Source: Escherichia coli (GTDB lineage Bacteria > Pseudomonadota > Gammaproteobacteria > Enterobacterales > Enterobacteriaceae). Taken from it: DNA of 64,000 nt. A program made the position numbers and the translations under genes. The DNA lies in the NCBI RefSeq assembly GCF_050320075.1, contig NZ_CP190018.1. The stretch is one strand, 5' to 3'. The notes beneath the pieces are model-generated. The model made no database searches. It was not told the origin of the DNA and saw only the letters and a program-made list of their open reading frames with translations. Positions 2,517 through 60,516 of this stretch are shown piece by piece (position 1 is the stretch's first letter; each line of letters starts with the position of its first letter).

Positions 2517-2882
<366 letters not shown>

Positions 2883-2897
2883 TTCTTGCGAGTTTCA

Positions 2898-2926
2898 GAA
2901 AAGGGGGCCTGAGTGGCCCCTTTTTT
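2898..2926 (+). terminator. rpsO intrinsic terminator
   Basis: aaaagggggcctgagtggcccctttttt: near-perfect GC hairpin plus T-run immediately after rpsO stop. Confidence 0.8.
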
Positions 2927-3128
2927 CAAGCTGACGGCAGCAATTCACTGGAAACTAATGTATTGTTGCTATGAATGATCTTCCGTTGCAGAGGTTCGCG
3001 CGGCTAATGAGAGGCTTTACCCACATTGGGCTGGGTTAGGGTTGTCATTAGTCGCGAGGATGCGCAGAAGATCGGGTATTAACACCAGTGCCGTAAGGTA
3101 CTGTCTAAGAAAGAGAAAGGATATTACA
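2927..3128 (+). promoter_or_regulatory. pnp promoter/leader region (RNase III-processed autoregulatory leader by established knowledge)
   Basis: About 200 nt untranslated region upstream of pnp with a TTG start; position-based call, motif not verified. Confidence 0.45.
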
Positions 3129-16158: not shown

Positions 16159-17199
16159 ATGACTGGTCAGTCTTCATCTCAGGCGGCAACGCCCATTCAG
16201 TGGTGGAAACCCGCGCTTTTCTTTCTCGTTGTCATTGCTGGTCTCTGGTATGTGAAATGGCAACCTTACTACGGCAAAGCGTTTACGGCTGCCGAAACCC
16301 ACAGTATCGGTAAATCTATCCTTGCGCAGGCGGATGCTAATCCGTGGCAGGCGGCGTTGGATTACGCGATGATCTATTTCCTCGCGGTATGGAAAGCGGC
16401 GGTGCTGGGCGTACTGCTCGGGTCGTTGATTCAGGTGCTGATCCCGCGTGACTGGTTGCTGCGTACGCTTGGGCAATCGCGCTTTCGCGGCACGCTGCTG
16501 GGAACGCTGTTTTCGCTGCCGGGCATGATGTGTACCTGCTGTGCGGCTCCGGTCGCGGCGGGAATGCGTCGCCAACAGGTATCGATGGGCGGGGCGCTGG
16601 CATTCTGGATGGGGAATCCGTTGTTAAACCCGGCGACGCTGGTGTTTATGGGGTTTGTCCTCGGCTGGGGGTTTGCGGCGATTCGTCTGGTCGCGGGGCT
16701 GGTGATGGTGTTGCTGATTGCGACGCTGGTGCAAAAATGGGTACGTGAAACACCGCTAACGCAGGCACCGGTCGAAATTGACATACCGGAAGCGCAGGGC
16801 GGATTTTTTAGCCGCTGGGGCAGGGCGCTATGGACGCTTTTCTGGAGTACGATCCCGGTTTATATCCTTGCCGTACTCGTGTTGGGTGCCGCTCGCGTCT
16901 GGTTATTCCCCCATGCTGATGGTGCTGTCGATAACAGCCTGATGTGGGTGATTGCGATGGCGGTAGCGGGATGCTTGTTTGTCATTCCAACGGCAGCAGA
17001 AATTCCAATTGTACAAACGATGATGCTGGCAGGCATGGGAATCGCTCCGGCGCTGGCATTGTTGATGACGCTCCCGGCGGTGAGTTTGCCGTCACTGATT
17101 ATGTTGCGTAAAGCGTTCCCGGCGAAAGCCTTATGGCTGACGGGGGCGATGGTGGCAGTGTCAGGTGTGATTGTCGGCGGGCTGGCGCTGTTGGCCTAA
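16159..17199 (+). CDS. yraQ: Putative permease (DUF318 family)
   Basis: 346-aa polytopic membrane ORF. Confidence 0.82.
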   Translation: MTGQSSSQAATPIQWWKPALFFLVVIAGLWYVKWQPYYGKAFTAAETHSIGKSILAQADANPWQAALDYAMIYFLAVWKAAVLGVLLGSLIQVLIPRDWLLRTLGQSRFRGTLLGTLFSLPGMMCTCCAAPVAAGMRRQQVSMGGALAFWMGNPLLNPATLVFMGFVLGWGFAAIRLVAGLVMVLLIATLVQKWVRETPLTQAPVEIDIPEAQGGFFSRWGRALWTLFWSTIPVYILAVLVLGAARVWLFPHADGAVDNSLMWVIAMAVAGCLFVIPTAAEIPIVQTMMLAGMGIAPALALLMTLPAVSLPSLIMLRKAFPAKALWLTGAMVAVSGVIVGGLALLA

Positions 17200-57223: not shown

Positions 57224-57327
57224 AATTCTTGACCTCTCTTTACTTCCTTTTATGGTAAGGGGCTGGACGCTACATTGTTAGCCAGATATTCTGCCCGGTA
57301 TGTTCAAATTTCCTGAATGAGAACGAA

Positions 57328-58224
57328 ATGGCCAAAGAAAGGGCATTAACGCTGGAAGCACTACGGGTTATGGATGCGATCGATCGCCGGGGCAGTTTTG
57401 CGGCGGCGGCGGATGAGCTGGGACGCGTGCCTTCCGCACTTAGCTACACCATGCAAAAACTGGAAGAAGAGCTGGATGTGGTGCTGTTTGACCGCTCGGG
57501 CCATCGCACCAAATTCACCAATGTCGGGAGGATGTTGCTGGAGCGAGGGCGCGTTTTGCTGGAAGCCGCAGATAAACTGACTACCGATGCGGAAGCTCTC
57601 GCGCGCGGTTGGGAAACGCATCTCACCATTGTGACCGAAGCGCTGGTACCGACACCTGCCTTTTTCCCGTTAATTGACAAACTGGCGGCAAAAGCGAATA
57701 CCCAACTGGCAATCATCACCGAAGTGCTGGCGGGGGCATGGGAACGGCTGGAGCAGGGGCGGGCGGATATCGTTATCGCGCCGGATATGCATTTTCGTTC
57801 CTCGTCGGAGATCAACTCGCGCAAACTCTATACCTTAATGAACGTCTATGTTGCCGCGCCTGATCACCCGATTCATCAGGAGCCAGAACCGTTATCTGAA
57901 GTGACGCGCGTGAAATATCGTGGAATTGCGGTAGCGGATACCGCTCGTGAGCGCCCGGTGTTGACCGTACAGCTGCTGGACAAACAGCCGCGCTTAACGG
58001 TGAGCACGATTGAAGATAAACGTCAGGCGTTACTGGCGGGGCTTGGCGTGGCGACGATGCCGTATCCGATGGTCGAAAAAGATATTGCGGAAGGGCGGTT
58101 GCGTGTCGTCAGCCCAGAATCGACCAGCGAGATCGATATTATTATGGCCTGGCGTCGTGACAGTATGGGGGAAGCGAAATCCTGGTGTTTGCGGGAAATT
58201 CCCAAACTTTTTAGCGGAAAATAA
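57328..58224 (+). CDS. yhaJ: LysR-family transcriptional regulator
   Basis: 298-aa ORF with N-terminal HTH; divergent from yhaK. Confidence 0.88.
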   Translation: MAKERALTLEALRVMDAIDRRGSFAAAADELGRVPSALSYTMQKLEEELDVVLFDRSGHRTKFTNVGRMLLERGRVLLEAADKLTTDAEALARGWETHLTIVTEALVPTPAFFPLIDKLAAKANTQLAIITEVLAGAWERLEQGRADIVIAPDMHFRSSSEINSRKLYTLMNVYVAAPDHPIHQEPEPLSEVTRVKYRGIAVADTARERPVLTVQLLDKQPRLTVSTIEDKRQALLAGLGVATMPYPMVEKDIAEGRLRVVSPESTSEIDIIMAWRRDSMGEAKSWCLREIPKLFSGK

Positions 58225-58274
58225 TATTTGTTATTGTTAATAAAAAGGGGCGAAATATCGCCCCAATTCTAAGA

Positions 58275-58631
58275 TTAATTTGAACCAAACTTCGGATCGT
58301 TTCCGTAACGATTGCTGCCAGAATTGCCTTCTAAACAGGCAAATACAAACAGAACTAACCAGCCAATGACCGGTACCAGATAGAGAAGCGCCCACGCACC
58401 TGAACGGTCAGTATCGTGCAGACGACGAACGCACAGAGCAATGACCGGAATGATTGTTGCTGCCAGGTAAATGAGAGAAAGGAATGGAAACTCTAAACCT
58501 AAAATCAATTGAATGACATTGATAATAGCGCCGACGATGGCGTTAATCAGAGTAAACATCCAGTACTCTTTACGACGTGCGCGACCAGAGAAACCAACAT
58601 AATTTTTTAATACGGCTAAATACCACTGCAT
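58275..58631 (-). CDS. yhaI: DUF805 inner-membrane protein
   Basis: 118-aa ORF; paralogous to adjacent yhaH (shared YLxVLKNYVGFxGRARRKEYWMF...RRLHDTDRS). Confidence 0.82.
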   Translation of the reverse strand: MQWYLAVLKNYVGFSGRARRKEYWMFTLINAIVGAIINVIQLILGLEFPFLSLIYLAATIIPVIALCVRRLHDTDRSGAWALLYLVPVIGWLVLFVFACLEGNSGSNRYGNDPKFGSN

Positions 58632-58872
58632 AAAAACATCCCTTTAATTAAAAGTGACGAAAGTCTATTCCGGGTATTGTGTAAATGCTATTCGTATCTT
58701 TCTTTTTCGGATGTTATAAAGGTTTTGATATTTAAGATAAATACATGGTTATTTTTTATATGTAATTTATATAACGACATTGAAATATTTTAAATAAACA
58801 TTAGTAAATTATTCATTCATCAACATGATGATAAAAGCCGGATGAGTCAGACATCCGGCGAGTAGATTTGTT

Positions 58873-59238
58873 TTAAGGTTCCAGTTTTGGATCAGGTCCA
58901 AAGCGGTTTTCGCCTGGCGTACCCGCCTGGCAGTTAAAGACGATGATAATAAGCCAGCCGATAAACGGGATTAAGAATAGCAGTGCCCACCACGCCGAGC
59001 GGTCGGTGTCGTGCAGGCGGCGGAACTGAACTGCCCACCATGGTAAAAACACCAGAATACCGTAGATTGTCGTCAGGATGCCTTCGCCACCGGCACGTTG
59101 CCAGCCTAACATTTTATCCAGTAGCCCCAGCACGAACGTAAAGATGATGTTGACCAGAATAAACATCCAGTACTCTTTGCGCCGCGCACGACCCCGGAAA
59201 CCGACATAATTTTTTAGTACTTTCAGATACCAGTCCAT
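58873..59238 (-). CDS. yhaH: DUF805 inner-membrane protein
   Basis: Start placed at MDWYLKVLKNYVGF (121 aa). Confidence 0.82.
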   Translation of the reverse strand: MDWYLKVLKNYVGFRGRARRKEYWMFILVNIIFTFVLGLLDKMLGWQRAGGEGILTTIYGILVFLPWWAVQFRRLHDTDRSAWWALLFLIPFIGWLIIIVFNCQAGTPGENRFGPDPKLEP

Positions 59239-59339
59239 TTTTGCCTCAATTTTGCTCAATCACTTGTTTTTAAAGCAGCAAATTAAGAATAGACGTGAAT
59301 GAAATGGCAGTAAATATTCGTTCAAGGAATTAATAAAGT

Positions 59340-59500
59340 GCCGTGAAGGCGCGCTAAGACTGATGACAAGCGCAAAATCGCCAGATGCGCTACGCTTATC
59401 TGGCCTACGCGGCATTGTAACATATTGAATATAAACGTTTTGTAGGTTGGAGAAGACGTTCACGCCGCATCCGACATAAATAACACGCACTTAGCTAATA
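59340..59500. repeat. REP-like palindromic elements between yhaH and yqjG
   Basis: gccagatgcgctacgcttatctggcctacgcgg and cacgccgcatccgac motifs. Confidence 0.45.
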
Positions 59501-59529
59501 ATCAGAGGCACCCCGTAAGGTGCCTTTTT

Positions 59530-60516
59530 TTAACCGAAGCGAACATCTCGTCCATGCGGTTCATCGAGATCCTGCCACGGACCAATTGAAATAATCCCCG
59601 TAGGGTTGATGGTCTTATGACTGCGGAAGTAATGATTACGGATGTGATCGAAATTGACGGTTTCGGCAATCCCCGGCATCTGGTAGATATCTCGCAGGAA
59701 ACCATACAGGTTCAGGTAATCGCTGATGCGGTGCTTATCACACTTGAAGTGGGTGACATACACCGGATCAAAACGCACCAGCGTGGTCCACAGGCGAATA
59801 TCGGCTTCGGTTAGCTGGTTGCCGGTCAGGTAACGATGCTGGCCTAAAATCTGCTCCAGTCGCGCCAGCGATTCAAACACTTTCACTACCGCCTCGTCGT
59901 AGGCTTGCTGGCTGGTGGCAAAACCGGCTTTATACACGCCATTGTTAACGGTGTCATAAATCCAGCCGTTAAGTTCGTCAATTTTCGTTTGCAGGGCTGA
60001 TGGGTAGTAATCACCCGCTTTCGCGCCCAGCGCATCAAACGCGGTATTGAACATGCGGATGATTTCTGCTGATTCGTTGCTGACGATGGTGTGGTTCTTT
60101 TTGTCCCACAGCACGGGAACAGTAACTCGTCCGCTGTAGTGTGGATCGGCGTGGAGATAAAGCTGATACAGAAATTCATGTTGATAGAGCGTATCTCCGG
60201 TTGCACCCGGAAAACTGTCATCAAATGTCCAGCCGTTTTCCAGCATCAGCGGGTTCACTACGGAAACGGAAATAAACGGTTCCAGTCCTTTGAGTTTACG
60301 CATGATCAGCGTGCGGTGCGCCCACGGGCAGGCGAGTGAAACATAGAGATGATAACGATCTTTCTCTGCGATAAAACCGCCTGTGCCAGTGGGGCCTGGC
60401 GCGCCATCGGCAGTGAGCCAGTTACGAAATGCGGAAGCTGAACGTTGAAATTTACCGCCGGTAGATTTGGTATCGTACCAGGTGTCATGCCAGACGCCGT
60501 CAATCAGTTGACCCAT
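59530..60516 (-). CDS. yqjG: Glutathionyl-hydroquinone reductase (Xi-class GST-like)
   Basis: Start MGQLIDGVWHDTWYDT (328 aa). Confidence 0.88.
   Translation of the reverse strand: MGQLIDGVWHDTWYDTKSTGGKFQRSASAFRNWLTADGAPGPTGTGGFIAEKDRYHLYVSLACPWAHRTLIMRKLKGLEPFISVSVVNPLMLENGWTFDDSFPGATGDTLYQHEFLYQLYLHADPHYSGRVTVPVLWDKKNHTIVSNESAEIIRMFNTAFDALGAKAGDYYPSALQTKIDELNGWIYDTVNNGVYKAGFATSQQAYDEAVVKVFESLARLEQILGQHRYLTGNQLTEADIRLWTTLVRFDPVYVTHFKCDKHRISDYLNLYGFLRDIYQMPGIAETVNFDHIRNHYFRSHKTINPTGIISIGPWQDLDEPHGRDVRFG

Follow-up and report, generated by a model that had tools for sequence, protein, structure and literature searches.

Two similar genes for small membrane proteins of the same family, yhaH and yhaI, lie next to each other in the 64,000-nucleotide stretch of Escherichia coli DNA analysed here (hereafter the window), and they raise the question of how the second copy came to stand beside the first and whether both are needed. 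The initial annotation read the pair as an old tandem duplication of DUF805 genes of unknown function. DUF805 is among the largest uncharacterised families of bacterial membrane proteins, numbering over 28,000 clusters at 50% identity. In E. coli it can be studied in a natural genetic system, in which one copy is core and another optional and stress-inducible, with two deeply diverged alleles, natural nulls and a reported phage phenotype; this makes the function of the family experimentally approachable.

Both genes are already annotated members of this known family, and the pair as first described adds little to the existing annotation. What is new here is the population structure of the locus, which occurs in three forms among E. 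coli chromosomes, together with the mosaic make-up of its yhaI allele. The population structure is a modest addition, and both features are ordinary accessory-gene variation unless they can be linked to selection by phages or toxins.

Anatomy and identity of the gene pair

The two adjacent minus-strand reading frames proposed at first sight were recovered as described (Table 1). A Shine-Dalgarno-like AAGGGA lies 8 nt 5' of the yhaI ATG, and the mechanical reading frame of yhaH reaches further upstream, to a TTG at 59259. Pairwise alignment, which had been suggested as a check, gave 63 identities over 118 residues (53%; full-length BLASTP, E 2e-44), far above the background-level identity that would have spoken against paralogy, and the two blocks said to be common, WYLxVLKNYVGFxGRARRKEYWMF and RRLHDTDRS, occur in both proteins. 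Membership of DUF805 was likewise confirmed: PF05656 matches YhaI with 108.9 bits (profile positions 1-110 of 111) and YhaH with 120.9 bits (1-111 of 111), both above the Pfam gathering threshold of 25.7 bits. The genes are thus adjacent, on the same strand and significantly similar, as a tandem pair formed in place should be in the first instance, and their N-terminal blocks form a 96-nt direct repeat with 78% nucleotide identity. No third DUF805 gene was found elsewhere in the 64-kb window.

The protein encoded by yhaH is identical to YhaH of K-12 (WP_000384145.1), RefSeq names the locus yqjF-yqjG-yhaH-(yhaI)-yhaJ-yhaK with yhaI labelled yhaI/DUF805, and many E. coli chromosomes match the DNA of the locus at 100% identity. 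The name yhaI is also in use for non-orthologous DUF805 members; the 'yhaI' described as a Klebsiella pneumoniae-specific LAMP target is apparently a different DUF805 paralogue, with primers that encode RRMHDIG (PMC8864245).

Table 1. Features of the yhaH-yhaI locus, in window coordinates
Feature	Coordinates	Strand	Remarks
yhaJ	57328-58224	+	LysR-type regulator, convergent neighbour
Terminator-like hairpin 3' of yhaI	58247-58264	-	GGGGCGATATTTCGCCCC followed by a T-run; faces convergent yhaJ
yhaI coding sequence	58275-58631	-	118 aa, DUF805, window-type allele
Divergent yhaI patch	58324-58496	-	173 bp; codons 46-103 (loop 1, TM2, TM3)
96-nt direct repeat, copy 1	58536-58631	-	N-terminal block of yhaI
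Very AT-rich spacer 5' of yhaI	58632-58836	-	18-30% GC; presumed yhaI promoter region
Candidate CpxR box	58794-58808	+	ATAAACATTAGTAAA; 1 mismatch to GTAAA-N5-GTAAA; ~165-175 nt 5' of yhaI ATG
Terminator-like hairpin 3' of yhaH	58837-58859	-	between the two genes
yhaH coding sequence	58873-59238	-	121 aa from ATG, DUF805
Two 18-nt direct repeats inside yhaH	58975-58992 and 59023-59040	-	48 nt apart
96-nt direct repeat, copy 2	59143-59238	-	N-terminal block of yhaH
yqjG-yhaH intergenic region	59239-59529	-	yqjG terminator, REP/BIME-like elements (~59380-59490), AT-rich yhaH-proximal 100 bp

Two transcription units and their regulation

Terminator-like hairpins follow both genes, and another follows yqjG (59525-59506). 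Given these terminators and the AT-rich spacers, yhaH and yhaI form separate transcription units, split by the hairpin behind yhaH. The earlier remark about separate AT-rich regions upstream of the two genes is accurate: the spacer between them has 18-30% GC, and the ~100 bp 5' of yhaH have 32-33%. A strict scan for sigma-70 promoters returned no site, and an Rfam search of 57800-60000 gave just a weak match to the REP-derived naRNA4 (59445-59486), far below threshold. The REP/BIME-like stretch at 59351-59500, between yqjG and yhaH, is only 80-90% identical to K-12 and carries indels, with flanks at ~100%.

In Salmonella, yhaH mRNA is a validated target of the small RNA SdsR, which represses it, and YhaH protein climbs toward stationary phase (PMC5137417). 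Overexpression of CpxR raises yhaI 3.2-fold on arrays and 40.3-fold by qRT-PCR, similar to spy (PMC2731931), and in EHEC yhaI is activated 36-fold by Ler, the strongest Ler-activated gene outside the LEE (PMC3891560). The spacer 5' of yhaI holds a candidate CpxR box, which has a chance probability of ~0.07 in this spacer and is not conserved in Citrobacter. Two further overlapping one-mismatch matches to such a box, amounting to three GTAAA-like pentamers with 10-bp spacing, lie at 57229-57253 in the divergent intergenic region between yhaK and yhaJ.

The strength of induction by CpxR overproduction and by Ler leads us to infer that yhaI is silent by default. Ler is an H-NS antagonist that counters H-NS silencing, and the AT-rich yhaI promoter is therefore probably silenced by H-NS.

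Protein family and predicted structure

At E <= 1e-3, DUF805 comprises 28,107 clusters at 50% identity, and in many members a single chain contains two to four of the domains with short hydrophilic linkers between them. Among 95 diverse sequences R17, R20, W24, P62, R69, R70, H72, D73 and N107 (YhaI numbering) are invariant, and the marks of the family, namely the GRxxRxE[YF]W and RRLHD motifs and three hydrophobic helices, are all present here. In the AlphaFold2 model of YhaI (pLDDT 94.2, pTM 0.85), residues 2-9 form an amphipathic N-terminal helix, followed by helices at 20-44, 50-73 and 78-99, of which the third has a kink at P87; hydropathy also supports the three hydrophobic helices.

Lysine and arginine average 6.1 residues in the N-terminus across the family, 0.27 in loop 1 and 2.9 in loop 2, a distribution that places the N-terminus and the RRLHD loop in the cytoplasm. 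The C-terminus may be cytoplasmic too, to judge from tandem domains that follow one another without a linker and from C-terminal zinc-ribbon fusions, in which case helix 3 would have to be re-entrant. When a natural DUF805 protein with two domains was modelled with AlphaFold2, each domain came out confidently and the packing between domains did not (pTM 0.50). The multi-domain fusions hint that these proteins may work as oligomers. As to the activity, our best guess is that the proteins form an oligomeric module in the membrane, with conserved basic, His and Asp residues making up a site on the cytoplasmic side, and that some phages exploit this module.

That the function is unknown, as first stated, holds for the biochemistry; regulation and a phage-infection phenotype have been published, and YhaH-GFP has been found to mislocalise without YidC (PMC3225971). 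A profile search of the PDB gave a single chance match (E 0.84), a structural search gave no meaningful one, and the PADLOC defence models had no match to YhaH or YhaI at E <= 1. NCBIfam returned sub-threshold matches only, and in a relaxed Pfam scan nothing emerged beyond a weak resemblance between TM3 and DUF5684 and PLDc_N-type motifs. When the neighbours of 50 non-enterobacterial DUF805 loci were clustered, no neighbour family recurred. PHROG 12855, annotated as phage 'moron membrane proteins', matched at 5.7e-27.

DUF805 members are indeed found in phage records. The Shigella Stx phages 75/02 and POCJ13 (KF766125.2, NC_025434.1; ~16300-16690) encode one, 32% identical and named 'hypothetical protein', and Listeria and Enterococcus phage records contain others, consistent with the 'moron' label of PHROG 12855.

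Distribution beyond E. coli

A species scan (one genome per species, with patterns drawn from the conserved blocks) yielded 80 loci. Of these, 30 Enterobacteriaceae loci have yqjG and/or yhaJ synteny, and every one of the 30 holds a single DUF805 gene, with yhaJ adjacent in 28; among them are loci from Citrobacter, Klebsiella, Enterobacter, Kluyvera, Cedecea, Siccibacter, Shimwellia and Mangrovibacter, as well as E. albertii and the E. coli species representative. In each, the gene is orthologous to yhaH: identity to YhaH is mostly 70-100%, with two outliers at 57-61%, and identity to YhaI is 42-56%. An HMM scan of the 80 loci detected a second DUF805 copy nearby in one, from Enterovibrio. The core copy is yhaH, which almost throughout the Enterobacteriaceae has no other DUF805 gene beside it between yqjG and yhaJ.

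In a search of 5.8 billion proteins, the nearest relatives of YhaI outside Escherichia were 60-68% identical, and none exceeded 68%. Four of them could be located, and all four occupy the same slot by yhaJ. Citrobacter rodentium and C. amalonaticus carry a tandem of yhaH and a yhaI-type gene, Superficieibacter electus has three DUF805 genes at the locus, and Intestinirhabdus alba has the yhaI-type gene alone. The comparison of single and double copies that had been suggested for this locus therefore finds the pair to be real and not fixed, with yhaH only at all 30 species loci.

Two of these loci show further rearrangement. The third DUF805 gene of S. electus (145 aa) is divergent, reading RRLHDLNWSG, and an Ldh_2 gene is inserted 3' of yqjG (2619-3056 and 1373-2389, respectively, of extracted locus L084). 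In C. rodentium, IS66 elements lie immediately 5' of yhaH, in the position that yqjG takes in other genera (extracted locus L082, 1-2293).

Three forms of the locus in E. coli

Haplotypes were counted in 5,426 complete E. coli genomes. The central part of yhaI is of the type seen in the window in 2,289 genomes and of the K-12 type in 2,111, including MG1655 and O157:H7, and 1,012 genomes, including UTI89, Nissle and ST131, carry instead an empty-site junction of yhaH, hairpin and yhaJ. Consistent with these counts, a full-length yhaI is present in 4,353 genomes; yhaH stands alone in 19% of complete genomes. With yhaI missing from 1,012 of 5,426 E. coli genomes, from E. albertii and from 30 of 30 species loci, the pair is no fixed element of the core genome.

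Comparison with the empty site defines yhaI as a cassette of ~650 bp whose limits are precisely the stop codons of yhaH and yhaJ: homology ends at the last two yhaH codons (LEP* versus LEQE*) and restarts at the yhaJ stop. The empty site of UTI89 consists of one shared hairpin, and in other strains and in E. albertii the hairpin is doubled around a REP/BIME insertion. No integrase, transposase, att-like site, target duplication or other repeat was detected at the cassette borders, and no true plasmid or phage copy of yhaI was found. Of the hallmarks of an island, yhaI has atypical composition and patchy distribution, and it lacks mobility features and an identifiable donor. In one E. coli isolate from sewage (NZ_OZ001728.1, 2769719-2771996) the yhaH/yhaI locus, with three annotated DUF805 features, contains an IS1A insertion.

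Defective alleles of both genes occur naturally. The K-12-type yhaI contains a T7 tract (about 58340-58346 in window coordinates; about 2566-2572 of extracted locus L089) that the window-type allele lacks, and assemblies contain T6 and T8 frameshifts of it, a 139-aa product in 345 contigs (P0182) and a 131-aa product in 190 (P0196), which are either slippage variants or homopolymer sequencing errors. In yhaH, a 48-bp in-frame deletion, the length that separates the two 18-nt direct repeats, leaves 105 aa and removes VQFRRLHDTDRSAWWA (P0097, 193 contigs); the shortened protein lacks RRLHDTDRS, that is, the invariant RRLHD loop. The reciprocal 48-bp duplication, giving 137 aa, was present in 19 contigs (P0001).

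A mosaic yhaI allele

Identity between the window and K-12 is 97-100% over yhaJ, yhaH, the spacer and both ends of yhaI (45 codons at the start, 15 at the end), and drops to 70-76% within 58300-58510. The divergent patch at the core of this region (Table 1) differs from the K-12 allele at 54 positions (~69% identity), with dS 1.06, dN 0.17 and dN/dS 0.16. In the protein, the changes conservatively exchange one hydrophobic residue for another within TM2 and TM3, every invariant residue is retained, and a dN/dS of 0.16-0.19 between the two E. coli alleles marks yhaI as under purifying selection. Intragenic recombinants between yhaI alleles exist.

The patch does not derive from any sampled genus, to which it is 55-65% identical, and a closer relative was absent from the 5.8-billion-protein search. 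Gene conversion from yhaH is excluded as the source, the patch being 49-55% identical to yhaH. An adenine-biased diversity-generating mechanism is excluded by the presence of all substitution types (25 transitions, 31 transversions), mostly at third codon positions, and diversifying selection by the dN/dS of 0.16.

The flanking gene yqjG (59600-60250) and the 3' half of yhaJ (57650-57900) are 93-97% identical to K-12, against 99-100% further out. This divergence suggests that a wider segment around the locus may have been affected by recombination.

Phylogeny and rates of evolution

A neighbour-joining tree of 47 sequences (117 columns, 500 bootstraps) recovered a yhaI-type clade with 81% support and an enterobacterial yhaH clade with 82%. 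In the best tree these clades group as sisters, with only 34% bootstrap for the joint clade. Mean identities are 53.7% between YhaI and YhaH types, 52.2% between YhaI types and outgroups and 53.2% between YhaH types and outgroups, the outgroups coming from other orders and phyla, and the signal is saturated. Because the joint clade has 34% support and YhaI is no closer to YhaH than to homologues from other phyla, duplication in place is undemonstrated. YhaH and YhaI are genuine ancient paralogues of one fold; of the 'old tandem duplication' first proposed, the paralogy and the age of the split stand, and the in-place origin, with its sister clade at 34%, is tentative.

Compared over the same pairs of genomes, YhaI types are 60-67% identical between genera and YhaH 75-86%, so that the yhaI lineage is evolving two to three times faster. 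Within one genome, in four genera, YhaH and YhaI are 50-59% identical, so that concerted evolution is absent and gene conversion between them has left no sign. Third codon positions are 42% GC in yhaI and ~60% in yhaH and yhaJ, and the GC3 of the yhaI type is below that of its yhaH and yhaJ neighbours in all five genera. Lateral spread would also be compatible with this low GC3 and with the patchiness of the distribution; under vertical inheritance, many independent losses would be needed.

Discussion

How, then, did the two genes come to lie together? The history that we prefer, and hold to be somewhat better than an even bet, is an old two-gene state followed by differential loss, which is also the most economical. 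It is favoured because the same slot is occupied in five genera and because Intestinirhabdus provides the reciprocal case. Under this history the split between yhaH and yhaI would be at least as old as the divergence of Escherichia, Citrobacter, Superficieibacter and Intestinirhabdus, after which most lineages would have kept yhaH only, Intestinirhabdus the yhaI type only, and E. coli would still be polymorphic.

The locus would then encode two independently transcribed inner-membrane proteins of ~120 aa with one fold and one molecular activity, differing mainly in regulation and dispensability and perhaps functionally redundant. A shared activity is most likely because the invariant polar residues (those listed above except P62) are identical in both. 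The slowly evolving core copy would be yhaH, and yhaI would represent a separate, faster, AT-richer paralogue lineage, carried as a cassette with its own terminators and AT-rich promoter region, which would be silent unless induced by CpxR overproduction or Ler.

The main competitor is a foreign origin, which we regard as possible and clearly the less probable course of events. A DUF805 cassette from an AT-richer donor would have inserted beside yhaH, entered E. coli after the divergence of B2, and spread through recombination in the yhaH and yhaJ flanks. The composition of yhaI in all five genera and of its spacer favours this, as do the induction by Ler, typical of silenced foreign DNA, the sharp borders at two stop codons, the 34% support for a joint clade, and the absence of yhaI from the 30 species loci, from E. 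albertii and from the B2 strains UTI89, ST131 and Nissle. However, the borders have none of the integrase, transposase, att-like or target-duplication features of insertion, true plasmid or phage copies are wanting, and no donor was found; the nearest relatives are 60-68% identical, and the four located ones all sit in the same slot. The best tree, moreover, still puts the yhaI clade beside enterobacterial yhaH, and Intestinirhabdus has the yhaI type only, as reciprocal loss predicts.

Selection by phages could bear on why the locus is so variable. In E. coli TK001, a frameshift in yhaH confers resistance to PhiWec188 and PhiWec190, both Stephanstirmvirinae phages, and sensitivity returns on complementation (bioRxiv 10.1101/2024.11.29.626071). 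It is conceivable, though we give it little credence, that the locus has been moulded by phages, or by toxins whose passage across the inner membrane depends on DUF805 proteins, with YhaI as an inducible alternative or decoy entry factor. The three intermediate-frequency forms of yhaI, the ancient TM2-TM3 patch and the recurrent loss-of-function alleles, among them the T7 slippage in yhaI and the repeat-mediated deletion of RRLHD from yhaH, could be footprints of such selection.

That yhaI is merely a decaying redundant copy, its function no longer under selection, is slightly more doubtful still. The empty site in 1,012 genomes, the common frameshift alleles at the K-12-type T7 tract and the low GC3 would all suit decay; against it stand the dN/dS of 0.16-0.19 between alleles with all invariant residues kept, the intact orthologues in C. 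rodentium, C. amalonaticus, Superficieibacter and Intestinirhabdus, and an induction by CpxR and Ler that is both strong and specific.

Least credible, and in our view very improbable, is an obligate YhaH-YhaI hetero-oligomer in the style of EbrAB or two-gene Fluc, for which the tandem would be functionally required: the fusion of two to four domains in many family members suggests that DUF805 domains cooperate, but a terminator lies between the genes, their regulation differs, yhaH stands alone in most species and in 19% of E. coli and the yhaI type alone in Intestinirhabdus, the two-domain AlphaFold2 model has no confident packing between domains, and the same K+R bias of N-terminus and loop 2 in both proteins means that they are not an opposite-topology pair.

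Set beside known systems, the pair resembles the SMR proteins EbrAB and MdtIJ and two-gene Fluc/CrcB in consisting of adjacent paralogues, in coding for small multi-helix membrane proteins and in having fused forms in the family; unlike those pairs, yhaH and yhaI show neither opposite charge bias nor co-transcription, and each gene is also found alone. Its AT-rich promoter region, low GC3, 36-fold activation by Ler and accessory distribution liken yhaI to the AT-rich accessory genes that are silenced by H-NS and activated by Ler or other regulators; the locus differs from these in being free of mobile-element features, and the link to H-NS is here a probable one. Inner-membrane host factors are familiar for phages, such as ManYZ for lambda, PtsG for HK97 and NfrB for N4, and the need for yhaH during phage infection of TK001, whose allele may differ from that of the window, may be of the same kind. 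As members of PF05656, YhaH and YhaI match the family end to end with all invariant residues and show no structural difference from it. Finally, the pair corresponds to YhaH (b3103) and YhaI (b3104) of K-12 in locus, order, orientation between yqjG and yhaJ and YhaH sequence, and departs from it in the yhaI allele, which is 85% identical in protein and ~85% in nucleotide sequence overall.
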